A DNA stretch of 64,000 nucleotides from Candidatus Woesearchaeota archaeon (GTDB lineage Archaea > Nanobdellota > Nanobdellia > Woesearchaeales > JAZDKJ01): contig JAZDKJ010000006.1 of NCBI GenBank assembly GCA_043803105.1, forward strand, positions 364,222 to 428,221, given 5' to 3'. Shown here in pieces: positions 741 through 41,330 of this stretch. Every line of letters begins with the position of its first letter. The stretch's first letter is position 1. The notes beneath the pieces are model-generated. The model was not told the origin of the DNA, made no database searches, and saw nothing but the letters and a program-made list of their open reading frames with translations. Position numbers and translations under genes: made by a program.

Positions 741-3380
741 TCAGGTGTTGTCTATTATGCTCTGGACGTTTAACTTACCTCCCTCTGATTTTGATACGTC
801 CATGCTGTCTTCTCCGTAAAGGAATTGTATGATCTTTCCTGAAGCATCCCGCACAGTGTTGTCATACTCCACCTTCAGGTCCTGCATCGCGTTTGCCAGC
901 CTTCTATAGAGGTATCCTGATTTTGGGGTCCTCAATGCTGTGTCCATGAGTGAATCCCTTCCGGTCATTGAGCCGAAGAAGAATTCTGCTGGGCTTAGCC
1001 CTTTCTTGAATCCATCCCTGATAAATCCGTGCGCGCTTGATCCCAGATCTCCTTTCTTGAAGTGGCTGATAGTCCTTCCCTGGTAGCCCTTGTCAATCCT
1101 CTTTCCCCTCATTGCCTGCTGGCCTACGCATGCTGCCATCTGGGCAAGGTTTAGGGGCGTACCGCGTGCTCCTGATTCTGCCATGATTATCGTGTGAGTT
1201 TTCTTGTCAGCGAATTCTGCCACTATCTCTCCTGTCCTGTTCCTGGTCTTGTTGAGTAGCTCCAATATCTTCAATTCAAGCGTCTCTTTGAGAGTCCTCC
1301 CTGGGAATGTCTCCAGTTTTCCGTCGCGATAGAGCGCAATCAATTGATTTACGTCCTCATCTGCCTTGTTGAGTTCTTGCTCTATCATCTGCCTTGCGTT
1401 CTCTGGCAGGTCAGTATCTGATATTGCAGTTGTGAATCCTCGCTTTGAAAGGACTGCTATTCCAAGCCTGAAGATGTTTTCAAGGATCTTTATTGTCTCA
1501 TAAGGTCCATACTTCTTATGGAATTTCCTGAGCAAGAGTCCTGATCCCTCGCCAAGATTGCTTCTGTCCATCACTCCCTTTGTTAGCTGCCCTTTGCGTA
1601 TCGTAACAACGTTGCTTCCATCCAGGTCTTTGGACTTTGATTTTCCGTCAAAATCGAAGTCATCCGGTAAGAGCACTGAGAACATCTCTTTTCCTGTCAC
1701 CTTTTGCCTGCTTGGTAGCTTCGAGAGGTCTGAGATGCCAATTGAAATCATTAGCTCAACCGCTTGCGTTCTTGGCATTTCCATGAATTTTGTGAGTAGA
1801 TAATTGCCTGAGATTGAGTCCTGGATGCAGCCTATCACAGATAGCCCGTATCTTGGGCTTATGAGCTGGGTCGGGACTGACATAAGTATCTCTGCCTCAG
1901 CCCTTGCTTCCTCTGTCTGAGGTATGTGGAGGTTCATTTCGTCTCCGTCAAAGTCTGCGTTGTATGGATGGCACACTGCTGGATTCAGCCTAAGCGTCTT
2001 TCCAGGCAAGACCCTGACTTGATGGCACATCATGCTCATCCTGTGCAGGCTTGGCTGCCTGTTGAATATTGCGACGTCCCCATCAAGAAGATGCCTTTCA
2101 ACAGAATAACCTGGCTGAAGTTCTTCCAGGCTTGCTTCTTTTGTCTCGTCTGTAATTTTCTTTTTCTTGCCGTCAGGCCTTATGATATAGTTTGCTCCAG
2201 GATATGTTCCGGGGCCCCTCTCTACAAATTTCTTGAGGTAGGCCATATTCCAAGAGTTTACGATTTCAGGCACTGTGAGTTTCATTGCTATTTCCTTTGG
2301 CACCCCGACCTCGCTTAAGTTTAGCATTGGGTCTGGGCTGATCACTGTCCTTGCGCAGAAGTTTGTTCTCTTTCCTGCAAGGTTATGTCGTATCCTTCCT
2401 TCCTTGCTCTTGATTCGCTCAGTGATTGTCTTGAGCGGCTGTCCGCTTCGATGCCTTGCCGGTGGCAATTGTGCTATGTTATTGTCAAAGAATGTGGTGA
2501 CATGGTATTGAAGCAGGTCCCATAGGTCCTCGATAATTATTTCTGGTGCTCCTGCATTTATGTTTTCGAACAGTCTCTGATTGATTCTGACAATGTCTCC
2601 CAATTTGTGTGTGAGATCGTCTTCAGAGCGCTCTCCAGACTCCAGAGTGATTGAGGGTCTCATCGTGACTGGTGGTATTGGCAGGAGTGTTAGCACCATC
2701 CATTCTGGTCTTACAGCCTTGGGATTTATTCCGAAAAGGTCAGCATCATCATCGGGAATCCTCTCCAATCTTGTCCTTACCTCTATCGGATTCAGCCTTC
2801 GCTCGTTTTCCATGAAGGTTGTTGGTTTCTCGAGCAAAACCTTGTGTTGTCGTGCCTTGCAATAAGGGCACTTGTTTGCTGTCTTTAGGCTGTTCACAAT
2901 TTCTTTGATGGCCTTTCTGCGTCCCTCTACGCCAGATTCCTTTTCCACTTTCGCGAGCTGGTCTTGGTAGTATTCAATCTTGTTTTTTGGGATAAGAACT
3001 CTTCCGCAATCCCTGCATGTGCACTTGAGGAGCGTTAGAATCACTCCCACAAACTTCACGTGCATTATCGGCCTTGCAAGTTCTATATAACCGAAGTGTC
3101 CTATGCACTCCTTTAATTTTGATCCGCATGTCTTGCACTTGAGTCCTGGATCAATGACTCCTAGCCTGATATCCATTAGCCCACCGTCAACAGGATAACC
3201 CTCCTTGTCATAAAGCTCAGGCGTGACTATCTTTGCCGAGGCCATCTGCTTTACCATCTTTGGGCTTAGCACTCCAAATACTATGCTGCTTACCTGCTTG
3301 TAAATATATTGCACAGGCTCTTCAGCTAGTTCCACGACCTCTTTTGTTAGTTCAGCTGCTGCTGGTGTTTCGTCTGCCAT
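741..3380 (-). CDS. rpoA1: DNA-directed RNA polymerase subunit A'
   Basis: 879-aa ORF with N-terminal zinc motifs (CKTCG..C..H, CTCRDCG) and the catalytic [13 protein letters not shown] motif. Sits in canonical rpoB-rpoA order. Confidence 0.97.
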
Positions 3381-3384
3381 TTTC

Positions 3385-5187
3385 TCAATATTTGTTTTTC
3401 AATACAAGTTTAGGGTAGATGCATAGTGACTTGAATTCGTCGAGCATCAATTTGAACGCATAGCTCAATTCGATATTGTTTATCTCCACATTCTCTCCGC
3501 AGACAGGGCAGTACTTCTTGTCCTTGTATGCGTCGTATATTGCAATTATTCCGCAGTTCTCGCAGACTGGTACGACTGTCTTGTCTGAGTCGAACCTTTC
3601 TTTGAGGAGTAATGATGCTCCGTGAGCCACAAAGGTGTCCTTTTCCATTTCTCCAAGCCTTAGGCCTCCCTCTTTTGCTCTTCCCTCTGTTGGCTGTCTT
3701 GTGAGCAGTTGTATTGGTCCCCTTGCTCTCGAGTGTATCTTGTTTGCAACCATGTGCCTTAGCTTGAGATAATACATGTTACCGATGAATATCTTTGCCT
3801 CGAACCTCTCTCCAGTCTCCCCATTGTACATGGTCTCTGTCCCATTCTCCCTGAAGCCAAGCCCGAGCAACTCCTTTCTTATGTCTGACTCTTTTTCTGA
3901 GCTGAATGTTGTTCCGTCTACGTATCTTCCTGCCAGTGCTGCAGTTTTTCCTGCCACTAGCTCAAGCAGGTGCGCTATTGTCATTCTGCTCGGTATTCCG
4001 TGCGGTGAGAATAATAGGTCTGGCACTATTCCTGATGCGCTGAATGGCATGTCAGCATGAGGCACGATTAGTCCGATTACCCCCTTCTGTCCATGTCTTG
4101 ATGTGAACTTGTCGCCTATCTCGGGTATTCTCTGGTCTCTTACCCTTACCTGCATGAGTTTGTTTCCCTCTTCGTTTTCTGTTATCAATACAAAGTCCAC
4201 TATTCCCTGCTCACCGTGCTTTAACGCCACTGAGCTCTCCCTTCTTGTGTTTGACGCTAAGCTATACTCATCCATGCCTGAGAGGAATCTTGGTGGGCTG
4301 GTCTTTCCTATGACAACGTCCTCTTCCTTGACTGGCGCTTCAGGGTATACTATTCCGTCAGGCTCAAGGAGCCTATAATCTCTCTCGCTCTTATAGCCCT
4401 TTACATCTTTGTTTGGTATGCAGACATCGTCCATTAGTCCGCCCGAATACCTGAGCTCTTCCGTTATTGATGGTCGATAATATGTGCTTCTTCCCATGCC
4501 CCTGTCTATCGATCCCTTGTTGATTATAATCGCGTCTTCCATGTTATAGCCCTTGTAGCTCATAACCGCAACAACAAGGTTTTGTCCTGCAGGGTGCTTG
4601 TCGTAGTCAGATATTTCGTGGATTATTGATTGCACGAGTGGCATCTGTGGTGTGTGCAGGAGGCTCACGTCCATGTCCATCCTTATGTCAAAGTTGGCAG
4701 CGTACAACCCTATTGCCTGCTTTTGGTTCTTGCTTCCCATGTTCAGCCTTGCTCCCTGGGTAAAGTTACCGAAGGGCACAAGCGCAACTGTTAGTCCGCA
4801 CATTGCCAAGGGTGTTATCTCCAGGTGGGTGTGTTCTGCTGTTACGTCCTCTGGCGTGAAGGCAACAAGGGTGTTCTCTTCCTCCATTGCATCCAGGTAT
4901 TCTATTACTCCTTGCTCTACAAGTTCCTTCCAGCCTATCTCCCCTTTCTGCAGCTGCTTGATGTGTTTTTCAGTTATGAGCGCTACTCCGTCCTTTACCA
5001 CGATTAGCGGCCTTCTTACCCTGCCCCTAAGGCTTTCTATTCTTACCTCGTCGATTTTGTCATTGTAGTATACGTTTACTGAGTCTGAGAGGACTCCCTT
5101 TCTTCTCTCTGCCTTTACCTGCTTTACAAAGTCCTCAGGATTATCGATTGTTCCCACATATTTGCCATTCAAAAAAACTTCGCTCAT
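3385..5187 (-). CDS. rpoB1: DNA-directed RNA polymerase subunit B' (C-terminal half of B)
   Basis: 600-aa ORF with GDKFTSRHGQKGV and LRLGEMEKD motifs and a C-terminal Zn ribbon (CENCG..CPVCG). Overlaps rpoB2 by 4 nt. Confidence 0.97.
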   Translation of the reverse strand: MSEVFLNGKYVGTIDNPEDFVKQVKAERRKGVLSDSVNVYYNDKIDEVRIESLRGRVRRPLIVVKDGVALITEKHIKQLQKGEIGWKELVEQGVIEYLDAMEEENTLVAFTPEDVTAEHTHLEITPLAMCGLTVALVPFGNFTQGARLNMGSKNQKQAIGLYAANFDIRMDMDVSLLHTPQMPLVQSIIHEISDYDKHPAGQNLVVAVMSYKGYNMEDAIIINKGSIDRGMGRSTYYRPSITEELRYSGGLMDDVCIPNKDVKGYKSERDYRLLEPDGIVYPEAPVKEEDVVIGKTSPPRFLSGMDEYSLASNTRRESSVALKHGEQGIVDFVLITENEEGNKLMQVRVRDQRIPEIGDKFTSRHGQKGVIGLIVPHADMPFSASGIVPDLLFSPHGIPSRMTIAHLLELVAGKTAALAGRYVDGTTFSSEKESDIRKELLGLGFRENGTETMYNGETGERFEAKIFIGNMYYLKLRHMVANKIHSRARGPIQLLTRQPTEGRAKEGGLRLGEMEKDTFVAHGASLLLKERFDSDKTVVPVCENCGIIAIYDAYKDKKYCPVCGENVEINNIELSYAFKLMLDEFKSLCIYPKLVLKNKY

Positions 5188-6671
5188 TTGATTACCTTCA
5201 GCCCCAAGCCTTTGAGTGCCTTGAGCACCTCTTCCTCGTTTGTGTCTGCCGAGACGCTTGCGAGTAGCGCAAGGTTCTTTCTTAACCCTATATTTGTTCC
5301 TTCAGGTGTCTCGATAGGGCATAGCCTTCCAAGGTGGGTGCTGTGCAGCTCCCTTGCCGCAAAGTTCTCCTGCGAGGCTGAGAGCGGGCTCACCACCCTT
5401 TGCAGGTGCGAGACTGTCTCCAGGAAGTTTAGCCTCTGAATTCTTTGGCTGATTCCCTTCCTGCCGCCTACCCAGGCTCCTGTTGCCATCGAGCTGTATA
5501 TCCTCTGGGTTAATAGCTTGTCCCTGATTATCACTTTGATGCTTGGGAATTTTCCCCTCTTTACTATTCTCTGGAAATTGTATAGTAGGTCTCCGATCAG
5601 CACTTTAAGGTTTACCCTGAATAGGTCTGCCAATAGGTCTCCTGAGCACTTGAGCCTCTTGTTCTTGTAGTGGTCCTTGTCGTCTTCCTCTACCTCTCCG
5701 TTTGACACAAGGATATATTTCTTGAGCATCTTGCAAAGGTTGTATGCTTTGTATATTCTCTCTTCTTTTTTCATTCCGATATGGGGCATCAGGTAGCGGT
5801 CAATTATCTCGGTTGTTCTTTCGATCCTGATTTCCTTTGCTTGTGTTATGCCTATCCTTTTTGCTATGAAGTCTAATGCGTCTTCACTCGTCTTTATATC
5901 TGCGAAGCTGTATAGGTTCACGACCACCTCATCGAATTGCCTCTCCTTGGATACTGACTTCATTATATCTTCATCGTTCAGGAGGCCAAGTGATTTTATG
6001 ACGATTATTAACGGAATTCTCTTAACTCTTGTAAAGGACAAATAGAAGATTCCATCCTTCATCTTTTCCAGTGTATGAGGTATCTTGTAATACCCATGCT
6101 CTGAGAATAGCTTGCCTGTGTATTCCGAAACCCCAATGTTTTGCTTCTCCACCAAAAGTTGGTTTGATGCGAGGTCTTCGACATCGATTAGTACCTTTTC
6201 TGTTCCGTTGATTATGAAATATCCTCCTGGGTCATCAGGGTCTTCACCCTTTTCTATAATCTCGTCCCTTGACATGTTGTGCAGGTGGCAAAACTTGCTC
6301 CTCAGCATGATTGGTATTGAGCCAACCTGGGTTACAAATGATTCTCTCTGCACATCATTGATATGGGCGCTTACCTCGATGAAGCATGGGCTTGCATAAG
6401 TTATCTTTCTTAGTCTTGCTTCAACAGGGTATATTGCCCTCCTTGAGCCGTCTGCTTCTGTTATCTCCGGCTTTGTGAGCCATATCTTGTCAAGCCTTAT
6501 CTTGAACTTGTCGACATTGCTTGGGATTATTGTGGGCTCTATATCTTTGTTTTCTTCTATAATCTTCTGCAGCTCGTGCTCTATAAAATAATTGTAGGAC
6601 TCTATGTCTGACTTTATGAGGGAATAGCTTTCAAAATATTTTTGTATCAGCAATTTTGCAGTGTTAACCAT
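5184..6671 (-). CDS. rpoB2: DNA-directed RNA polymerase subunit B'' (N-terminal half of B)
   Basis: 495-aa ORF ending in ...CPIETPEGTNIGLRKNLA, the conserved region just before the archaeal B''/B' split point. Confidence 0.95.
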   Translation of the reverse strand: MVNTAKLLIQKYFESYSLIKSDIESYNYFIEHELQKIIEENKDIEPTIIPSNVDKFKIRLDKIWLTKPEITEADGSRRAIYPVEARLRKITYASPCFIEVSAHINDVQRESFVTQVGSIPIMLRSKFCHLHNMSRDEIIEKGEDPDDPGGYFIINGTEKVLIDVEDLASNQLLVEKQNIGVSEYTGKLFSEHGYYKIPHTLEKMKDGIFYLSFTRVKRIPLIIVIKSLGLLNDEDIMKSVSKERQFDEVVVNLYSFADIKTSEDALDFIAKRIGITQAKEIRIERTTEIIDRYLMPHIGMKKEERIYKAYNLCKMLKKYILVSNGEVEEDDKDHYKNKRLKCSGDLLADLFRVNLKVLIGDLLYNFQRIVKRGKFPSIKVIIRDKLLTQRIYSSMATGAWVGGRKGISQRIQRLNFLETVSHLQRVVSPLSASQENFAARELHSTHLGRLCPIETPEGTNIGLRKNLALLASVSADTNEEEVLKALKGLGLKVIK

Positions 6672-6906
6672 TTATCGCACATCTGTAATAGTATGATTCT
6701 CCTGCAGTGCTGCTCTTTCGCGTTATCTTGACGACATCTCTCGGCTTTAGCTTTAGATCAATTACCGCAGGATCCTTGATAAGTAGTTTTGGTAGTTCGT
6801 TCTCAGTAATGTGGAAATGCTCGAGCAGCTGTTTTTTTTCAGCCTCGCTAAGTTTTTTATGCTTAGGCACAAGAATGTGTTTGCTTATGTTGAATGATGG
6901 CTTCAT
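6664..6906 (-). CDS. rpoH: DNA-directed RNA polymerase subunit H (Rpb5 homolog)
   Basis: The ORF-track ORF is 6664..6960, but its first 18 codons overlap the tRNA-Lys 3' exon. Start placed at MKPSFNISKHILVPKHKKLSEAEKKQLLEHF... (ATG = complement of 6904-6906). First gene of the rpoH-B-A operon. Confidence 0.85.
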   Translation of the reverse strand: MKPSFNISKHILVPKHKKLSEAEKKQLLEHFHITENELPKLLIKDPAVIDLKLKPRDVVKITRKSSTAGESYYYRCAING

Positions 6907-6917
6907 TTTAGATTGAA

Positions 6918-7044
6918 TGGGCCGGACGAGATTTTCTTTGTTTTTTTTTCCAAGTTGCATTCGAACTCGCGACCACCTGATTGCTTTGCAGCTTAAAAGT
7001 CAGGTGCTCTATTGCCCTTATACTCCAGGCTGAGCTACCGGCCC
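6918..7044 (-). tRNA. tRNA-Lys: tRNA-Lys(UUU), 127 nt, three introns (D-loop, anticodon loop, T-loop)
   Basis: Hand parse: GGGCCGG TA GCTC AGCCTGG[AGTATAAGGGCAA]TA GAGC A CCTGA CTTTTA[AGCTGCAAAGCA]A TCAGG TGGTC GCGAG TTCGAAT[GCAACTTGGAAAAAAAAACAAAGAAAAT] CTCGT CCGGCCC A. Exact splice points are ambiguous by 1-2 nt. Confidence 0.8.
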
Positions 7045-7059
7045 ATCGTGATTGAAAAA

Positions 7060-7225
7060 CGCCCTGGTCGGGACTTCCAACAACAGACATGCCGTATGAC
7101 ATTTTCAGCTGATTTGAACCCGAGTCGAAGCCTTTTTGCGGTAGCAAACAGTAATTCAACCCTCCCTCTGGTTGAAAAGCCACCTCGACAGGGCTTCATG
7201 ATAGGCCAGACTACACTACCAGGGC
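7060..7225 (-). tRNA. tRNA-Asp: tRNA-Asp(GUC), 166 nt, two introns (anticodon loop about 52 nt, T-loop 39 nt)
   Basis: Hand parse: GCCCTGG TA GTGT AGTCTGGCCTA TCAT G AAGCC CTGTCGA[GGTGGC...CCGCAAAAA region] GGCTT CGAC TCGGG TTCAAAT[CAGCTGAAAATGTCATACGGCATGTCTGTTGTTGGAAGT] CCCGA CCAGGGC G. Confidence 0.8.
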
Positions 7226-7432
7226 TTTGACCTAGTTAAGCCTAATTTAAGCTTTCTAGCCACCAAGCAGTCCACATAGGTCTTCTTAAGCGCATAGAAA
7301 GATTGAATTGGCATGGCCCACCTATCTTCACACCTGTTTATAAAGCTTGTGGTTTTTTCCTGACTTATTCAGGTCTGCTTGAACTTTTGCTTGATTACTT
7401 TCAAATGTTCTGCTCGAATTAAAGCGAGAATA

Positions 7433-7559
7433 TCCCCGAGGCCGGAGTCGAACCAGCAACCTTTCGGTAACGGCTGAGTGTTTTTCACATTCTGCACTGA
7501 GTGCAATATCAAAACACTATCCCTACAGCCGAACGCTCTAGCCATTGAGCTACTCGGGG
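7433..7559 (-). tRNA. tRNA-Tyr: tRNA-Tyr(GUA), 127 nt, one canonical 54-nt anticodon-loop intron
   Basis: Hand parse: CCCCGAG TA GCTC AATGGCTA GAGC G TTCGG CTGTAG[54-nt intron]A CCGAA AGGTT GCTGG TTCGACT CCGGC CTCGGGG A. The C1-G72 pair is the archaeal/eukaryal Tyr identity pair. Confidence 0.85.
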
Positions 7560-7636
7560 AAGCTTTTTTCCTTAGGAAAAAACCTTGGAAAATATGTTTT
7601 TGCCAAGGCAAAAACGCTGCCTTTAAGGCAGCTAAA

Positions 7637-7679
7637 GTTGCGAGCTGACTTTTCAGCTCAGCTATTGAGCTACTCAGGG
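7637..7679 (-). ncRNA. Truncated degenerate copy of the tRNA-Tyr 5' end (nt 1-24), ending within and continued by a conserved 23-nt hairpin
   Basis: CCCTGAGTAGCTCAATAGCTGAGC compared with the genuine CCCCGAGTAGCTCAATGGCTAGAGC (the D-loop GG is reduced to AG). The hairpin GAGCTGAAAAGTCAGCTCGCAAC (7659-7637) starts at the copy's last GAGC. The same hairpin occurs at 29650-29672 and 41291-41313. Confidence 0.6.
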
Positions 7680-8204: not shown

Positions 8205-10154
8205 TTATTTCTGCGGTTCGCTCGATGTCCAGTCCTGCTTGCACATGTTGTCGATTGCAGAGTATGCAAAGCTGCCCAGAGTATAGTCGAGAAGTTTCCA
8301 TGTCAAATCTCCTGCCAGGGCCTTGTTTGCCTGCTGTTGGGCTTCCCTCTCTGCTATTGCTTTTTGCTCGGCAGGGTCATTGTATGCTCCTGCAGTCTTC
8401 GCACTCAACACACTGGCGTATACTATTCCATCCGTACCGAGCACTGTTTTTTCCCCACTTAGTGCTATCCTTTCAGACCTGATTGGCCCACCCTCATCAA
8501 ATGTGTACTCTGTAACCATGGCCCCTGCTTGTGCAATATAGGTGCTTGATATTGCTCGTGTTGGAGGTGGAAAACTTTGTGGTGTACACACAGTGGGAGG
8601 AAATCCCTGCTTGACATATGCACCGTAAGGATACTCACTGTTAGGTTCTTGGTATTGGTAGTCCTGTTGTGCAAAATAGACTTGGGTGAGTGTAGGATCC
8701 TGCGCAGCTTGGCTGGCGCTTATGTCTATGATATTTATATCCGGATATATTGTGCTTTTCCAGCAGTTGCAGTTTGTATTGAAATGGTAAGAACCTTCTG
8801 ATGCTATGCTTGATATCTTCCCGTTATACCCGTTTTGGGTTAGGTCAGTTTGGAGTGTAAGATAGCTCATCCCTGATTTTAGGAGAGGGGTGTTGCCCCC
8901 AGCCACAATATAGTAACTGTATTTACCTTCCTTGTCAGTTGCAGATTGGCTATCAATTTTGCTTATTATTATCTGCCCCTTGTTCCCGTCAAAAACAACC
9001 CCTGCCTTCACATCATCAACCGTAACTGAAGGTTTGACTACCTGTCCGTTCTTCGCTACCCCATCATACATTTTGTCTCCATTCTTGTCAACCAATCTGT
9101 AATTATAGGGCACGGGTCTTCCAGACAACCTGTTCTTTATGTCCTCAAAGTGCAGGTCAGTGCATGTTGGTTCATTAAAGCTCGTTGACATCCAGTTCCA
9201 TGACTCTGTTACCTGTGATATCATTCCAGGAATGTTGGTGAGCTCCATCAATTTCAATACGCATTTTGGTATGGCTGCCTGCTTGATGATTTCTCCCAGC
9301 TGGCTTGCAAGGTATTTTGCCAGGATTGACATAAGTATCTTAGCCACAGTCTTTAGTATAGAACCTTTCCAGTACATGCACAGCGCTTCATCTAGTTGTT
9401 TCTCGCATGCCTCTGTTGATATTCCTGCGGTGCACGCCTGTTCGATGCAGCAATTATACACCTGGTAGATTGTCTTGAGCTTTCTTATGTTAAATAGTAT
9501 TGCAACTGGGCACAGGCAGTAAGTTGCAGTGTAGATGTTCTCATAAGGATTCAGGTGGAAATCTCCGATAGCCAGGTTTCCGTACCCTCCGCCTGTTGTT
9601 GTCTTTCCAACTCCAACCGTGTTGCTCAGGCTTTCAGAGTTCTGTCCTAGCACCGGCACGTTCTTCACTATTCCTCCGCATCCAAACTTTCCTGTGCACC
9701 AGCCGCAGCTTACAAGACAGCACAATCCCTGCACTACCGGCAATTTGTACACGCTAGACCATGCCTTAAACACTTTTTGCATTGCTATGCAAAGTTTGGT
9801 GCCAGTGAGTAGTCCAAGCAGGCAGCAGTCCCCTGCCTCGTCTCCTGAGAACCCTATTAAGCTTGATATTGCCGATAGCACGATGTCTATGGCGCTCATT
9901 ACAGTGCATATCATGAGCATTATTGACGCTACGCTCTCAAGCGTTCCTATTACTCCATTGTCAAGCGAGTCAGCTATGCCTGAGCTTTTCTTGTGCTTCT
10001 CAATGCACTGCTGTCCAGCCTCAAGGTCTGTTGTGCCAGTTTCCTCTGTTGCCTTACCAGTAACTGGATTTACCTCTGCAAATGCGATTGAAGTGCAAAA
10101 TGGGATGCTGATTATGAGAAAGATTAGGATTTTGGCTACTTGCTGTTTTATCAT
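8205..10154 (-). CDS. Cys-rich secreted/membrane protein, hypothetical
   Basis: 649-aa ORF with an N-terminal signal peptide (ILIFLIISIPFCTSIAFA-EV). Several hydrophobic helices and clustered Cys (DCCLLG, GLCCLVSCGWCTGKFGCGG, YNCCIEQAC). I recognise no family. Confidence 0.6.
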   Translation of the reverse strand: MIKQQVAKILIFLIISIPFCTSIAFAEVNPVTGKATEETGTTDLEAGQQCIEKHKKSSGIADSLDNGVIGTLESVASIMLMICTVMSAIDIVLSAISSLIGFSGDEAGDCCLLGLLTGTKLCIAMQKVFKAWSSVYKLPVVQGLCCLVSCGWCTGKFGCGGIVKNVPVLGQNSESLSNTVGVGKTTTGGGYGNLAIGDFHLNPYENIYTATYCLCPVAILFNIRKLKTIYQVYNCCIEQACTAGISTEACEKQLDEALCMYWKGSILKTVAKILMSILAKYLASQLGEIIKQAAIPKCVLKLMELTNIPGMISQVTESWNWMSTSFNEPTCTDLHFEDIKNRLSGRPVPYNYRLVDKNGDKMYDGVAKNGQVVKPSVTVDDVKAGVVFDGNKGQIIISKIDSQSATDKEGKYSYYIVAGGNTPLLKSGMSYLTLQTDLTQNGYNGKISSIASEGSYHFNTNCNCWKSTIYPDINIIDISASQAAQDPTLTQVYFAQQDYQYQEPNSEYPYGAYVKQGFPPTVCTPQSFPPPTRAISSTYIAQAGAMVTEYTFDEGGPIRSERIALSGEKTVLGTDGIVYASVLSAKTAGAYNDPAEQKAIAEREAQQQANKALAGDLTWKLLDYTLGSFAYSAIDNMCKQDWTSSEPQK

Positions 10155-12328: not shown

Positions 12329-13050
12329 ATGAACCTCTCTGTGTAATGAGCATAATAGTTTCGTGCCCAGCTGATTAGTGGCAGTGCTATCATAACCATC
12401 ACTAACAGCTTGAAGAACTGGTCTAATCTAGGGAGCACAAGAAATCGCAATATCACAACCATGAATCCTATCACCGCGTAGGGAACCACAAATTTATGGA
12501 ACCTGCATCCAGTCCAGAAAAGCGCCTTGATGGATTTTTTTATGCTCCGCGTTCTGGCATAAGAGAAAAGTATAATGGTGTTGAAGTGCAATGTAGCCAT
12601 CCCAATGATGACAAACAGGACATTATTATTCAGTTTGATTATTGAAAACAAGGCAATTACGATTGCGACACATAACAGGCCATAGTTGAGCAACGCCATT
12701 TGCCAGAAGTCTTTCAAGGAAAATCTCGTGCCAACCAGCCTGCTCCATATAATCCCTTTGAAGAGGCTAAACTCCGCTATTGCTGCCACAAAGAACAATC
12801 CTATCAAAATGAACAGCGTCGAAAGAAAACCTGCCAGCATATGTAACTGTTCCTGCGCATGGGCTGGGTCAATTGCTGCATTTAGGTTTACCGGCGTGGT
12901 TGCCCTGACTGTCAATGCCCACACAAGAAAGGTGCAGAATAGCGTAGCATAGAAAAGCAGGTCATAGCCATAGGCCACTAGAATCTTCTTGACTTCAAGA
13001 CTTTGCAGAAGAACCTTAAGTTCCTGCTTAAAATACCCTCTTTCAGTCAC
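12307..13050 (-). CDS. polytopic membrane protein, hypothetical
   Basis: 247-aa ORF with about 6 hydrophobic helices. Overlaps the next gene by 22 nt. Confidence 0.55.
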   Translation of the reverse strand: MTERGYFKQELKVLLQSLEVKKILVAYGYDLLFYATLFCTFLVWALTVRATTPVNLNAAIDPAHAQEQLHMLAGFLSTLFILIGLFFVAAIAEFSLFKGIIWSRLVGTRFSLKDFWQMALLNYGLLCVAIVIALFSIIKLNNNVLFVIIGMATLHFNTIILFSYARTRSIKKSIKALFWTGCRFHKFVVPYAVIGFMVVILRFLVLPRLDQFFKLLVMVMIALPLISWARNYYAHYTERFIWKKEDR

Positions 13051-13076
13051 AGATCTTTCTCAGACTGCAGCCCTAT

Positions 13077-13784
13077 TTATATCTTTTTATGGATGTCCTT
13101 TACCTTGCCGAAATCCAATATTTCTCCATCAGAGACCACATAGGCCTCAAAGTCCCGGATTTTATTGTATGGTCCTAACAAATCATCGCTTGTGATGTCA
13201 GTTCCGTAGCTGGCTGAGCTGAATGATGGCATCACTATCAAGTCTGCCTTGCCATATTTTCCCTTCAGAAAACACTTGTAAGTCTCTGCCCTGGCCCCTT
13301 CCCTGATGGTTATTGCAGGATGCATATGCCCGATTATTATTGTCTTTGCTTTCTTTGGAATCTTCTGCTCGACATGCCCATGCATGAGAAAGACATCATC
13401 TATCATTATGTTGTCCACTATCCGTACATTCTTTTTCTTTGCTATTGGTTCGAGTATGATGTCATGGTTGCCCTTGATTAGCGTGACTTTTGCTGACTTG
13501 CTTAAAAGATCAAGCACCTTCATTGTCTCTCTCCATTCCTGGCTAGACACCTCTCCAAATTCGTGCTTGACGTCGCCATTTATGATGATATGTTCTGGTT
13601 TTGTTTTTGCCATTATCTTTTCGAGTTGTTTCAATAATTCGCGGAGCTGAAACCTAGGTATGAAGAAGCCCTGCTTGTTCAATGCCTCCTCAAAGCCAAT
13701 GTGCAGGTCAGAAATGACCAGTGTCTTACATTTCTTAAGGTGCAAGGCAAGGTCGATTATCTCGATTCCAGGATGTATTTCCAT
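13077..13784 (-). CDS. metallophosphoesterase (archaeal SbcD-related/calcineurin-like)
   Basis: 235-aa ORF with the motifs ISDLHIG, INGDVKHEF, GNHD and MHGH. Confidence 0.8.
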   Translation of the reverse strand: MEIHPGIEIIDLALHLKKCKTLVISDLHIGFEEALNKQGFFIPRFQLRELLKQLEKIMAKTKPEHIIINGDVKHEFGEVSSQEWRETMKVLDLLSKSAKVTLIKGNHDIILEPIAKKKNVRIVDNIMIDDVFLMHGHVEQKIPKKAKTIIIGHMHPAITIREGARAETYKCFLKGKYGKADLIVMPSFSSASYGTDITSDDLLGPYNKIRDFEAYVVSDGEILDFGKVKDIHKKI

Positions 13785-29637: not shown

Positions 29638-29672
29638 GGGGCTGCGGGGGAGCTGCGAAGTCAGCTCGCACC
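29638..29672 (+). ncRNA. Truncated degenerate copy of the tRNA-Pro 5' end plus conserved 23-nt hairpin
   Basis: GGGGCTGCGGGGG compared with the genuine GGGGCTGTGGGGT (U8 replaced by C). The hairpin is GAGCTGCGAAGTCAGCTCGCACC (29650-29672). The leader ACAATCATT matches ACAATCAAT before the real tRNA. Confidence 0.6.
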
Positions 29673-29710
29673 TTCGTGGGACATAAAGTCCCCCTGACAT
29701 CACAATCAAT

Positions 29711-29827
29711 GGGGCTGTGGGGTAGCTTGGTCTAGCCTATCTGGTTTGGGGCAATGCAAAAAACCAGATGACCCCGGTTCGAAAGTTTTATAAAAGGCTG
29801 ATTAACTCGAAAATCCGGGCAGCCCCA
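29711..29827 (+). tRNA. tRNA-Pro: tRNA-Pro(UGG), 117 nt, two introns (12-nt anticodon loop, 30-nt T-loop)
   Basis: Hand parse: GGGGCTG TG GGGT AGCTTGGTCTA GCCT A TCTGG TTTGGG[12 nt] CCAGA TGAC CCCGG TTCGAAA[GTTTTATAAAAGGCTGATTAACTCGAAAAT] CCGGG CAGCCCC A. The mature length is 75 nt. Confidence 0.85.
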
Positions 29828-29905
29828 CTCATGTTCGTGGTTGGTCTTCCCAATGGGAAGACGCACCCTTTAGGGTGCCGATGCAGTCAACAGGCATTTC
29901 TGTTG

Positions 29906-29921
29906 ATCCGGGCCGCCCCCA
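29906..29921 (+). other. Degenerate duplicate of the tRNA-Pro 3' end
   Basis: ATCCGGGCCGCCCCCA compared with the genuine ATCCGGGCAGCCCCA (29813-29827). Preceded by three hairpins (29828-29905). Confidence 0.45.
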
Positions 29922-39452: not shown

Positions 39453-39654
39453 TGGGGCTGCTGGGATTTCCATGCTTCTAGGACGGTCTTTTGGCATCAG
39501 CCAAAAGCCTTTTCCCAGGTTTTTGCATATTGCAAAAAGCTGTTTGGACCCAGATTAGGAGGTTTTCCGCTGAAAACCTTAGGTCAAATGCCCCGAACCT
39601 CCAGTGATAGTTTCTCGAAGAGTTTCTCTCTTCTCCAAGTTACACTACAGCCCC
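39453..39654 (-). tRNA. tRNA-Pro: tRNA-Pro(CGG), 202 nt, three introns (D-loop 25 nt, anticodon loop 28 nt, T-loop about 76 nt)
   Basis: GGGGCTG TA GTGT AACTTGG[AGAAGAGAGAAACTCTTCGAGAAAC]TA TCAC T GGAGG TTCGGG[28 nt] CCTCC TAAT CTGGG TCCAAAC[AGCTTTTTGC...GCATGGAAAT] CCCAG CAGCCCC A. Confidence 0.7.
39635..39654 (-). repeat. 20-nt perfect direct repeat, copy 1 (first 20 nt of tRNA-Pro(CGG))
   Basis: GGGGCTGTAGTGTAACTTGG, identical to 41164-41183. The flanking bases differ on both sides. Confidence 0.9.
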
Positions 39655-39809
39655 ATAGGTTGAACTGGAAAGCCACACTGTTGTATGACCTTCCTATAAC
39701 TGCTAAACAGCAGGGTGTTAAAAAGGTTGCGATGGAACGTAACGATGTGATATATTAGAATTTTATGTGCCTCTTACCCTTCAGCAATGTGCAGATTCTG
39801 CTAATTAAA

Positions 39810-39821
39810 TTTATATATAAA
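39810..39821 (+). promoter_or_regulatory. TATA box (TTTATATATAAA) upstream of tyrS
   Basis: Read directly. Ends 34 nt before the ATG at 39856. Confidence 0.45.
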
Positions 39822-39855
39822 GAACTGTTTTATTGTTGCAATCGCTTGCATCACT

Positions 39856-40989
39856 ATGGATAACAGAGCAAAATTTGAACTTATAACGAGAAATTTAGAA
39901 GAAGTACTAACACCTGCAGATTTAATGAAACTCATTGAAAATGATGAGCCTTTAAAGCATTATATTGGTTTTGAAATAAGTGGTAAGGTGCATCTTGGAA
40001 CTGGACTTATGTGTATGTCCAAAATTAAAGACTTCATGGATGCAGGTGCGGATGTTTCTGTGTTTCTTGCTGACTGGCATAGTTGGATTAATGATAAACT
40101 TGGTGGAGACAGAGAAGTTATCAAAAAAATTGCCGTCGGATATTTCAAAGAAGCGATGAAGGCTAGCCTTCTTTGTCTTGGTGGTAATCCTGAAAAAATA
40201 AGATTTGTACTTGGTACAGAACTTTATCACAATAATGACGATTATTGGGCAACCATGATTGATGTAAGTAAAAATACGACTCTAGGCAGGATGACTCGGA
40301 GCATTACAATCCTTGGAAGAAAAGAAGGGGAGGGAGTTGATTTTGCAAAATTGATCTATCCTGCAATGCAGGTTTCAGATATTTTTGTTCAGAAATTGAA
40401 CATACCTCATGCAGGAATTGATCAAAGGAAAGCGCAAGTTATTGCAAGAGAAGTTGCTTTAAAAATGAAAGTAAGTCAAATTACTGATAAAGAGGGTAAT
40501 AAAATTAAACCCGTTGCCCTGCATCATCATCTGTTACTAGGTCTTGGCAAACCCCCGGTATGGCCTGTTCCTCAAGATAAATTACAGGATTTATGGTCAT
40601 CAATGAAGATGAGCAAGTCCAAGCCGGACACTTGTGTTTTTGTTCACGATAGTCCTGATGAAATTAAAAGAAAGATTGCAAAGGCATTCTGCCCTGAAGG
40701 TGAAACTGTGTTCAATCCAGTACTTGATTGGGCTAAATATTTATTGTTCAGAGAGACGACTGATGAACTTATAGTAAAAAGGCCTGAAAAATTCGGTGGA
40801 ACTGTTATATATACAACTTACGAAAAACTTGAAAAAGATTTTGCAGACAAAAAAGTTCATCCAATGGACCTTAAAGATTCAGTTGCTGAAAGTTTAATTA
40901 AACTACTTGAACCTGCAAGAATCCATTTTGAAAAACCTGAAATCAAAAAGACGTTGGATCAGCTTAACAAGCTCATAACCACAAGGTGA
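39856..40989 (+). CDS. tyrS: tyrosyl-tRNA synthetase (archaeal type)
   Basis: 377-aa ORF, recalled as collinear with M. jannaschii TyrRS: IGFEISGKVHLGT, LADWHSWIN, IYPAMQVSD, KMSKS, RPEKFGG and HPMDLK. Markedly more A+T-rich than its neighbours. Confidence 0.9.
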   Translation: MDNRAKFELITRNLEEVLTPADLMKLIENDEPLKHYIGFEISGKVHLGTGLMCMSKIKDFMDAGADVSVFLADWHSWINDKLGGDREVIKKIAVGYFKEAMKASLLCLGGNPEKIRFVLGTELYHNNDDYWATMIDVSKNTTLGRMTRSITILGRKEGEGVDFAKLIYPAMQVSDIFVQKLNIPHAGIDQRKAQVIAREVALKMKVSQITDKEGNKIKPVALHHHLLLGLGKPPVWPVPQDKLQDLWSSMKMSKSKPDTCVFVHDSPDEIKRKIAKAFCPEGETVFNPVLDWAKYLLFRETTDELIVKRPEKFGGTVIYTTYEKLEKDFADKKVHPMDLKDSVAESLIKLLEPARIHFEKPEIKKTLDQLNKLITTR

Positions 40990-41074
40990 TTTTATTCCTT
41001 TTTGTATGTTTATTCTAGATAGTTAATATTAGAATACAAAATTTCAGGATTAGCCTAAAATGTTTTATGCTTCT

Positions 41075-41183
41075 TTTCGAATTCCGGTCGGACGCATTCT
41101 GGTTTCATCCTCAAGCGTAAGTGATAGTTGCTTCAGGCAACCGAGCGAACTGGTTGGCGCTGGCCAAGTTACACTACAGCCCC
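41075..41183 (-). pseudogene. Truncated tRNA: Pro-like body, anticodon GAG, no 3' acceptor strand nearby
   Basis: GGGGCTG TA GTGT AACTTGG[37-nt insert ending AAGCAAC]TA TCAC T TACGC TTGAGG[12 nt] GCGTC CGAC CGGAA TTCGAAA... No CAGCCCC follows before the tyrS stop. Confidence 0.5.
41164..41183 (-). repeat. 20-nt perfect direct repeat, copy 2
   Basis: GGGGCTGTAGTGTAACTTGG, identical to 39635-39654. Confidence 0.9.
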
Positions 41184-41290
41184 GTTGATTGTTATTGTTT
41201 CGCGAAGCTCACAAGAAACCTGATAGTTTCTTGGGAGTCCCAAAAAACTTCAAGTTTTTTGTGACGAAAGGCGACTGAAAGGAGTGTAAA

Positions 41291-41330
41291 GGTGCCAGCT
41301 GACTTCTCAGCTGAGTAGCACTACAGCCCC
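41291..41330 (-). ncRNA. Truncated tRNA 5' copy (GGGGCTGTAGTG...) plus conserved 23-nt hairpin
   Basis: GGGGCTGTAGTGCTACTCAGCTGAGAAGTCAGCTGGCACC. The hairpin CAGCTGAGAAGTCAGCTGGCACC (41313-41291) carries a compensatory C1/G18 change relative to the other two copies. Confidence 0.6.

Follow-up and report, generated by a model that had tools for sequence, protein, structure and literature searches.

How a gene for an aminoacyl-tRNA synthetase (aaRS) comes to lie between two identical pieces of a tRNA gene, and whether these pieces have anything to do with its arrival, is the question raised by a locus in a metagenome-assembled genome of Candidatus Woesearchaeota, members of the DPANN superphylum, of which a stretch of 64 kb (the window) was analysed. 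In the window, tyrS (39856-40989, plus strand), the gene for a tyrosyl-tRNA synthetase (TyrRS), is flanked by two copies of a 20-nt sequence, which a preliminary description had taken for the footprint of a site-specific integration into a tRNA-Pro gene that delivered tyrS. The reading preferred here, to which we give a rough probability of 0.55, is a history in two layers, older scars of tRNA-Pro genes and a tyrS cassette that came later, with the 20-nt repeat having played no part in the arrival of tyrS.

With 377 aa the tyrS product has the length of its homologues, matches PF00579 over residues 29-352 (E=7.5e-38, Pfam) and shows the HLGT and KMSKS motifs in its translation, a full-length class I tyrosyl-tRNA synthetase. 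Like the aIF5B of the window, it has a 100% identical counterpart among the proteins of a Candidatus Woesearchaeota metagenome-assembled genome. The gene, encoded on the strand opposite to the tRNAs, is the single long open reading frame (ORF) between the repeat copies, as the preliminary description had stated, and the A+T-richness noted there by eye is confirmed as the one strong compositional outlier of the window. The GC content of tyrS is 0.363 compared with a mean of 0.443±0.023 for 58 window ORFs, its GC content at third codon positions (GC3) 0.270 compared with 0.479±0.051 (z of about -4), while its synonymous-codon divergence from the pooled long ORFs amounts to 0.074 against 0.031±0.007 (z=6.1 relative to 24 other long ORFs, among which the largest divergence is 0.043). 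The gene for the translation factor aIF5B has a GC3 of 0.49, and the 57 other window ORFs all fall between 0.39 and 0.60.

The A+T-rich signal also covers the non-coding flanks of tyrS. A fine GC profile delimits a block at 39752..41035 (plus strand), a putative inserted cassette consisting of tyrS and its own A+T-rich flanks, with sharp edges at about 39750 and at about 41036-41040. Both edges lie inside the repeats, by about 100 nt on the side of the first copy and about 130 nt on the side of the second; homology to a comparison locus of a relative (L083; L-numbers denote fetched comparison loci) begins within a few nucleotides of 39750, and on the other side the block adjoins the T-loop-intron-like tail of a tRNA pseudogene. 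An exact 10-nt direct repeat, ATATTAGAAT, brackets the block at 39752-39761 and 41026-41035; apart from this marginal 10-mer, neither terminal inverted repeats nor a convincing target-site duplication were found at the edges. In line with the preliminary description, no integrase or transposase domain was detected with Pfam and PHROGs in the ORFs between 32.7 and 47.5 kb, that is within about 6 kb of the block, and the window ORFs orf41414, orf41975 and orf42621 gave no informative matches in either database. Measured against an integrase-mediated element, the insert is compositionally foreign and absent from the orthologous site of relatives, but attachment (att) repeats exactly at the borders of the foreign DNA and an integrase gene in or beside the insert are both missing.

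What, then, is the 20-nt repeat? The 64 kb contain the sequence GGGGCTGTAGTGTAACTTGG exactly twice (39654..39635 and 41183..41164), as direct repeats on the minus strand, and a 20-mer repeat arose by chance in none of 100 shuffles, so that a perfect repeat of uniform orientation around tyrS is real. Copy 1 (39635..39654, minus strand) is exon 1 of a tRNA-Pro(CGG) gene at 39453..39654 (minus strand), whose four exons (39654-39635, 39609-39591, 39562-39543 and 39466-39453, with junctions ambiguous by 1-3 nt) are separated by introns in the D-loop after nucleotide 20 (25 nt), at position 37/38 (28 nt) and in the T-loop (76 nt). After in-silico splicing it is called by ARAGORN as a 73-nt tRNA-Pro(cgg), while the unspliced sequence yields no call; in the raw sequence ARAGORN and Rfam see neither of the two intact tRNA-Pro genes of the window, this one because of its three introns. 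The unconstrained minimum free energy (MFE) fold of the unspliced RNA (-77.5 kcal/mol) forms the acceptor, D, anticodon and T stems with the introns as separate hairpins. Orthologues with the same exons and different introns are found in L083, L084, L085 and L097, and the earlier view of copy 1 as the start of an intact gene holds once the three introns are removed.

When metagenome contigs were scanned with the first 18 nt of the repeat, 45 loci were retrieved in which the same 18-20 nt open tRNA-Pro genes with CGG, TGG and GGG anticodons, intron-less or intron-bearing, and several of them have a D-loop intron exactly at 20/21, a frequent feature of DPANN tRNA-Pro. Judged from these loci, the 20-nt repeat is an exon 1 conserved across DPANN tRNA-Pro isoacceptors, for which no duplication event would be needed, and its identity ends sharply because the exon-intron junction is reached and the D-loop intron starts there. 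The flanks do differ immediately outside the 20 nt, as described previously, but homology resumes past the non-homologous intron with a block of 12 identities in 13 positions (AGCAACTATCACT in copy 2 versus AGAAACTATCACT in copy 1) and amounts, for copy 2, to about 145 nt of tRNA-Pro gene body in total.

Copy 2 accordingly is far more than a repeat. Alignment with the tRNA-Pro(GGG) of L106 and with other GGG-type genes defines a 3'-truncated tRNA-Pro pseudogene at 41036..41183 (minus strand), in which exon 1 (41183-41164) is followed by a 37-nt D-loop intron unrelated to that of copy 1 (41163-41127), the next exon TATCACT (41126-41120), the anticodon arm TACGC-TTGAGGA with the anticodon GAG where GGG is expected (41119-41108), a 12-nt intron TGAAACCAGAAT (41107-41096), GCGTC, which closes the arm as TACGC-TTGAGGA-TGAAACCAGAAT-GCGTC (41095-41091), and the 5' half of a T-arm with a T-loop-intron-like tail to about 41036, whereas the last exon is missing. 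The anticodon arm aligns with those of GGG-type genes (TTGGGGA-GTTTCCAGAAT in L106), and the D-loop intron has homologues in the D-loops of the tRNA-Pro(CGG) genes beside aIF5B in L085 (77%) and L083 as well as in that of the tRNA-Pro(GGG) in L106. A tRNA-like CAGCCCCA 3' end that could belong to copy 2 does not occur in the window, where all such ends are those of the intact CGG and TGG genes; the CAGCCCCA sites at 5199, 56018 and 58368, tried as 3' halves, are coding sequence and not tRNA-like. With no 3' half in the window and a GAG anticodon in a Pro-type body, copy 2 does not qualify as a split, trans-spliced half either, and its sequence marks it as a dead, 3'-truncated paralogue of the GGG type. 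Of the earlier statement that it is the start of a truncated tRNA, the truncation stands, although what is truncated is a GGG-type paralogue of some 145 nt and not a 20-nt stub.

Still further upstream lies an older tRNA-Pro 5' fragment (41184..41330, minus strand), which begins with GGGGCTGTAGTG at 41330-41319, continues with a hairpin module, here termed H (CAGCTG-AGAAGT-CAGCTG, 41313-41296), and GCACCTT, and runs on as a degenerate D-arm-like AACTTG...GAAACTATCAGG segment, with a TATA-like AAATTTTTTAAG about 30 nt upstream of it. The T-loop intron in the tRNA-Pro(CGG) of L083 starts with a homologue of this H segment. On the side of copy 1, the intact gene is preceded by a leader (39655..39750, minus strand) conserved with relatives, which contains a TATA-like box, AACCTTTTTAACACC, about 85 nt upstream of the gene and a hairpin with compensatory changes. 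The leader has 85-89% DNA identity to L083 and L084 (over about 100-140 nt, the conserved stretch upstream of copy 1 being about 80-95 nt), and L085 has a similar TATA-like box at the same distance (-85).

The relatives show the site without tyrS. In L082/L083 (aIF5B 72% identical) and L085 (69%) the order NFACT, HIT, HIT, orf42621 homologue ... tRNA-Pro(CGG), aIF5B is kept, and tyrS is absent from this syntenic block in L083 and L085, the closest relatives with enough sequence, so that the arrangement of the window is not shared by them. The GTDB relatives reached via aIF5B (L001-L003, 57-61% identity) proved too distant for synteny on the tRNA side.

The homologues of TyrRS point elsewhere. 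The nearest ones (70-73% identity) are TyrRS of low-GC DPANN archaea that cluster tightly, with 85-94% identity among themselves, and the matches make up a flat plateau of 69-73% with hundreds of members, instead of the graded series obtained with aIF5B (73, 72, 70, 69 ... %). Sampled loci of the plateau have 29-41% GC, with five of the six distinct loci at 29-34%, and their tyrS genes a GC3 of 0.21-0.28, compared with 44-54% GC at the loci of host relatives. Between the window tyrS and one low-GC homologue the DNA identity is 74%, confined to the coding region, and no DNA homology to donor-type loci exists in the flanks of the gene; likewise, the flanks within the block matched no DNA in any fetched locus, and the window contains no second copy of the block. 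The gene neighbourhoods of the sampled TyrRS homologues differ from each other and none is like that of the window. An ancestral HIT-tyrS synteny, suggested by adjacency of the two genes in L081 and L135, was dropped, as the contexts of other TyrRS genes differ. Low-GC homologue loci, flat TyrRS plateau, composition and synteny together favour, short of proof, an acquisition of tyrS, the donor probably being an unsampled low-GC DPANN archaeon.

This TyrRS type has peculiarities of its own. While it is 85-94% identical among unrelated low-GC DPANN contigs (L081, L132, L135, L137, L139 and L140), the genes next to it diverge more, with 56-74% identity; between L137 and L139, TyrRS is 94% but Peptidase_M48 just 56% identical, and between L132 and L137 the respective values are 86% for TyrRS and 74% for a radical-SAM gene. 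The GC content of tyrS in L139 is below that of its own locus. The type may have been exchanged repeatedly among DPANN archaea, or may be unusually constrained. In L140, the gene immediately after a tyrS (product 72% identical to that of the window) encodes a 270-aa tyrosine recombinase (1378-2190, plus strand), probably the housekeeping XerA, and in L125 a distance of 53 nt separates the end of a tyrS of distant type (2646-3713, plus strand, 34% identity) from an intron-less tRNA-Pro(CGG); both proximities are probably coincidences.

From this material we infer order, donor and mechanism as follows. In a lineage with heavily disrupted tRNA genes, in which a three-intron tRNA-Pro(CGG) resides next to aIF5B, insertions or recombinations at tRNA termini would have left behind the GGG-type pseudogene and the 12-nt 5' fragment, as in the model proposed for Caldiarchaeum. 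Later, tyrS and its own promoter would have arrived from a low-GC DPANN donor as a self-contained cassette of about 1.27 kb, which would have entered the spacer bounded by the pseudogene on one side and the leader of the intact gene on the other, probably by illegitimate or microhomology-mediated recombination with ATATTAGAAT as the candidate duplicated junction; the spacer, littered with tRNA-Pro fragments, would act as a recurrent landing pad. The two-layer history is favoured because the edges of the block lie inside the repeats, because the intron of copy 2 is of the host-family type and not of that of low-GC donors, and because the leader upstream of copy 1 is common to relatives. The same findings, together with the conservation of exon 1 and its end at an exon-intron junction, speak against the original interpretation of the repeat as the footprint of tyrS delivery and as an att or crossover site.

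The architecture recurs. In L083, which represents the same organism as L101 in a different assembly, an exact 18-nt copy of exon 1 stands behind a canonical tRNA-Pro promoter, TTTAAATAAGAC (compare L087 and L097), followed by an A+T-rich ORF of 157 aa on the opposite strand (GC3 0.37 compared with 0.50-0.68 in its neighbours) and then by the same conserved leader and an intact tRNA-Pro(CGG). L106 has an intact tRNA-Pro(GGG) and, about 740 nt upstream, a second copy of promoter, exon 1 and intron start, separated from the gene by two small ORFs; Pfam and PHROGs gave no informative matches for these ORFs or for the cargo ORF of L083. In L091 and L110, exon 1 breaks off after nucleotide 18 into unrelated sequence. 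L083/L101 and L106 thus repeat a pattern in which foreign or additional DNA separates an intact tRNA-Pro gene from a 5' tRNA fragment. A scan for 11-nt copies of tRNA ends within 300 nt of 46 tRNA-Pro genes recovered copies of the 5' end exclusively upstream (four genes) and copies of the 3' end exclusively downstream (four genes: L088, L123, L127 and L084), with no terminal fragment of either kind on the wrong side around the 46 genes; such side-specificity is the pattern predicted for insertion scars at tRNA termini. On the other side of the tRNA-Pro(CGG) of L083, between this gene and aIF5B, an ORF of 406 aa (8717-9937, plus strand) encodes bacterial-type Sigma70 region 4 and RNA polymerase alpha C-terminal domains and has a GC3 of 0.46 compared with about 0.6 in its neighbours, probably another foreign gene at the same tRNA locus.

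Disruption of tRNA genes is not restricted to this locus. By in-silico splicing or the intron mode of ARAGORN, a tRNA-Lys(UUU) with three introns (6918-7044, minus strand), a tRNA-Asp(GUC) with two (7060-7225, minus strand), a tRNA-Tyr(GUA) with a single intron of 54-57 nt (7432-7560, minus strand; also seen by Rfam) and a tRNA-Pro(TGG) with two introns (29711-29827, plus strand) were identified. At default settings ARAGORN reports no tRNA in the 64 kb and Rfam only the tRNA-Tyr, so that four of the five intact tRNA genes of the window are missed by both, in agreement with a report of low tRNA counts in Woesearchaeales genomes (bioRxiv 10.64898/2026.05.13.725050). As a separate observation on introns, the 37/38 and T-loop introns of the tRNA-Pro(CGG) in L084 (100-360, plus strand) share a long repeat, ACAGCTTTTTTT..GC..AAAAAAACCTGGGAAAAAGCTTT..., and the T-loop intron of the window gene (within 39467-39590, minus strand) belongs to the same family, whereby intron sequences appear, from these similarities, to have spread between positions inside one tRNA gene.

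The H module, with the consensus SAGCTG-NRAAGT-CAGCTS followed by GCAMCTT, is found at 7642-7679 (minus strand), 29638-29667 (plus strand) and 41296-41330 (minus strand) of the window and at 8500-8530 (plus strand) of L083. In the window it comes immediately after a near-copy of the initial 12-20 nt of the tRNA situated 73-150 nt downstream, the three hosts being tRNA-Tyr, tRNA-Pro(TGG) and the tRNA-Pro pseudogene of copy 2, while in L083 it constitutes the start of the T-loop intron of tRNA-Pro(CGG). No H module was present in the other fetched loci, and it matches no Rfam family. Interpretation of the hairpin as a C/D-box or k-turn element failed on a CUGA missing in one copy, and that as a tRNA-Lys anticodon arm on the opposite strand on the wrong loop length. 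A tentative and rather doubtful extension would have the tRNA genes of this DPANN lineage targeted by small non-autonomous insertion modules such as H, which would give rise to spliceable introns or to duplicated terminal exons, the spacers thus created serving as integrase-less landing pads that capture genes like tyrS; if true, the birth of introns and the fragmentation of tRNA genes would have been caught in progress.

Some tRNA-Pro genes are nested between a copy of their own 5' end upstream and of their own 3' end downstream, in the window at 29638-29921 (plus strand; the 3'-end copy, GATCCGGGCCGCCCCCA, at 29905-29921), in L084 at 12850-13210 (minus strand) and in L123 at 6452-6682 (plus strand). 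A 7-bp hairpin precedes the 3' fragment, TCAACAG/CTGTTGA in the window and TCAACAC/GTGTTGA in L084, which amounts to a compensatory change. The outer pieces can pair in MFE folds, being complementary by origin; a functional tRNA-Pro(GGG) composed of the outer fragments at 29638 or at 13210 of L084 was rejected, as no consistent anticodon arm could be formed. In L127 (700-1010, minus strand) two tandem units of about 58 nt, both with GTCCGCAGCCCCA at their end, come after an intron-less tRNA-Pro(CGG), and the start of the unit, TTGAACGRAGTGAAATG, is common to L127 and L123 (6618-6682, plus strand), which derive from different organisms; the units may represent a series of integration scars or else a miniature element directed at the 3' ends of tRNAs.

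How firmly the two-layer history holds depends on what else could have produced the locus. The preliminary description can be restated in modern form as a single recombination, site-specific or homologous, in the shared exon 1, by which a circle integrated that carried a tRNA-Pro-like attP (a GGG-type body without its last exon), tyrS and the leader; the truncated copy would then be a hybrid, the intact gene would have been reconstituted, and the recombinase would have been lost later or have acted in trans. The succession of 5' fragment, foreign DNA and intact intron-bearing tRNA indeed has the architecture described by Sugahara et al. and recurs in L083/L101 and L106; moreover, the D-loop intron starts exactly where the repeat ends, the distal fragment of L083 carries the canonical promoter, a homologue of orf41975, a neighbour conserved with L097, adjoins the distal-most fragment, and the leader accompanies the cargo in the window and in L083. 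Such an event is nevertheless unlikely, given a copy 2 intron that resembles those of high-GC host-family tRNA-Pro genes, an A+T-rich block that stops short of both repeat copies, a box at -85 in the cargo-free L085 that suggests a native leader architecture, the lack of an integrase in the 32.7-47.5 kb region and an exon 1 whose universal conservation explains the 20-nt identity without any event. Even less probable is that tyrS is native to the site and was lost or moved in the relatives, with a gene-specific low GC content and tRNA copies that are tandem paralogues. That TyrRS is of DPANN type, as the host lineage predicts, that the type is unusually conserved in general and that HIT adjoins tyrS in one TyrRS lineage (L081 and L135), with the HIT genes of the window 2.5 kb away, would fit; yet no other translation gene of the window, such as aIF5B, shares the bias, the A+T-rich signal includes non-coding flanks with sharp edges, the conserved block lacks tyrS in both L083 and L085, and the variable neighbourhoods of TyrRS homologues never match the window.

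An artefact is very improbable, although the contig is of metagenomic origin and an exon 1 identical across many DPANN genomes of one habitat could in principle have joined low-GC DPANN reads into a Woesearchaeote contig via conserved tRNA k-mers: the compositional edges lie away from the 20-mer, the inner sides of both copies are host-like or conserved with host relatives, a 20-nt identity is below usual assembly k-mers, and L083 and L101 show an analogous architecture independently in different assemblies. We attach equally little credence to functional upstream pieces, that is alternative terminal exons or split-tRNA halves with tyrS inside a giant tRNA intron. In favour of function, distal fragments have tRNA +1 as their exact start and promoter-like boxes in front of it, base pairing of the outer 5' and 3' fragments around the inner tRNA is possible, and the window and L084 differ by one compensatory change in the hairpin that precedes the 3' fragment. 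On the other hand, disabling changes are present in the fragments (U8 to C at 29638 and a D-loop at 7679 that has lost its GG), copy 2 has a GAG anticodon and no 3' exon, the downstream genes are complete alone, and the outer fragments pair because of their origin, which is no evidence of function.

Several findings weigh against the two-layer history itself. Cargo that recurs exactly between the 5' fragment and the intact gene is also expected from integration into exon 1. The leader itself could have belonged to a shared mobile element as its terminal part: it occurs in both cargo-bearing genomes (the window and L083) and in L084, where the contig stops short of the upstream region, whereas the cargo-free L085 has no leader of homologous sequence. 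The 10-nt repeat at the junctions is marginal, as 5.7% of locally shuffled spacers share a 10-mer (p of about 0.06). Finally, the case for a foreign origin is one of composition, synteny and pairwise identity to TyrRS from loci other than those of the closest host relatives, not one of phylogenetic incongruence, and the best TyrRS match reaches only about 73%, which leaves the donor outside the sample.

Horizontally transferred aaRS genes, archaeal tRNAs with several introns and insertions linked to tRNAs are each known already, and with tRNA loci as established hot spots of foreign DNA, an aaRS gene that moved between small symbiotic archaea is ordinary in kind. The value of the locus lies in a clean and well-bounded DPANN case in which tRNA disruption, orphan terminal fragments and the capture of a foreign gene are joined, and in the caution that a tRNA-derived repeat around a foreign gene need not mark the arrival of that gene. 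The more unusual material is the H module in an intron as well as behind orphan fragments, the side-specificity of the terminal fragments and a TyrRS type conserved at 85-94%. Multi-intron tRNAs missed by the gene finders may account for tRNAs 'missing' in surveys of DPANN genomes, and the origin of archaeal tRNA introns and fragments from insertions at tRNA termini gains comparative support from a new lineage.

Among known systems, the closest parallel is Caldiarchaeum subterraneum, in which a mobile element separates an intact, intron-bearing tRNA gene from a 5' fragment located 1.8 kb upstream (PMC3293823); this insert has a recombinase gene and occurs in more than one genomic copy, and either terminus of a tRNA can be used as an attachment site (Sugahara et al., 2012; PMC3293823). 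Both loci share a 5' fragment 1.5-1.8 kb upstream of the intact gene in direct orientation, foreign DNA between the two, an additional intron of the intact copy where the identity with the fragment ends (in the window after 20 of 20 identical positions, with the intron from nucleotide 21) and relatives with an 'empty' arrangement. In contrast to Caldiarchaeum, the window insert lacks the marks of a mobile element and holds the housekeeping gene tyrS alone, in a single copy in the window and without a recombinase, the upstream copy is a long GGG-type pseudogene and not a bare att fragment, and the edges of the foreign DNA are off the repeat. With pNOB8/SSV-type elements and bacterial tRNA-linked islands the locus has in common the tRNA as landmark, a partial tRNA as direct repeat, the foreign composition and the variable cargo at the site in relatives, but an att core duplicated exactly at the borders and an intact or partitioned int, as in pNOB8/SSV-type elements, are both lacking from the tyrS block. 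Integration into the 3' part of a tRNA is the best-known case, as exemplified by SSV1, while in the window it is the 5' exon which is repeated. The locus thus works like a tRNA-linked genomic islet that deviates from integrase-mediated elements in two respects, the position of its borders and the missing integrase.

Its tRNA genes, on the other hand, resemble the multi-intron and split tRNAs of Thermoproteales, Nanoarchaeum, Caldivirga and ARMAN in having D-loop introns at 20/21 and T-loop introns besides those at 37/38, in escaping the standard finders and in combining conserved exons with fast-evolving introns; they differ by their Woesearchaeote host and by an H module located both in an intron (L083) and after orphan 5' fragments, and, in distinction from split tRNAs, there is no evidence of trans-splicing for the orphan fragments. 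As in other instances of horizontal aaRS transfer, a lone synthetase gene with donor-like codon usage stands in an otherwise syntenic region, although here donor and recipient would both be DPANN archaea and the exchange would have taken place within the superphylum.

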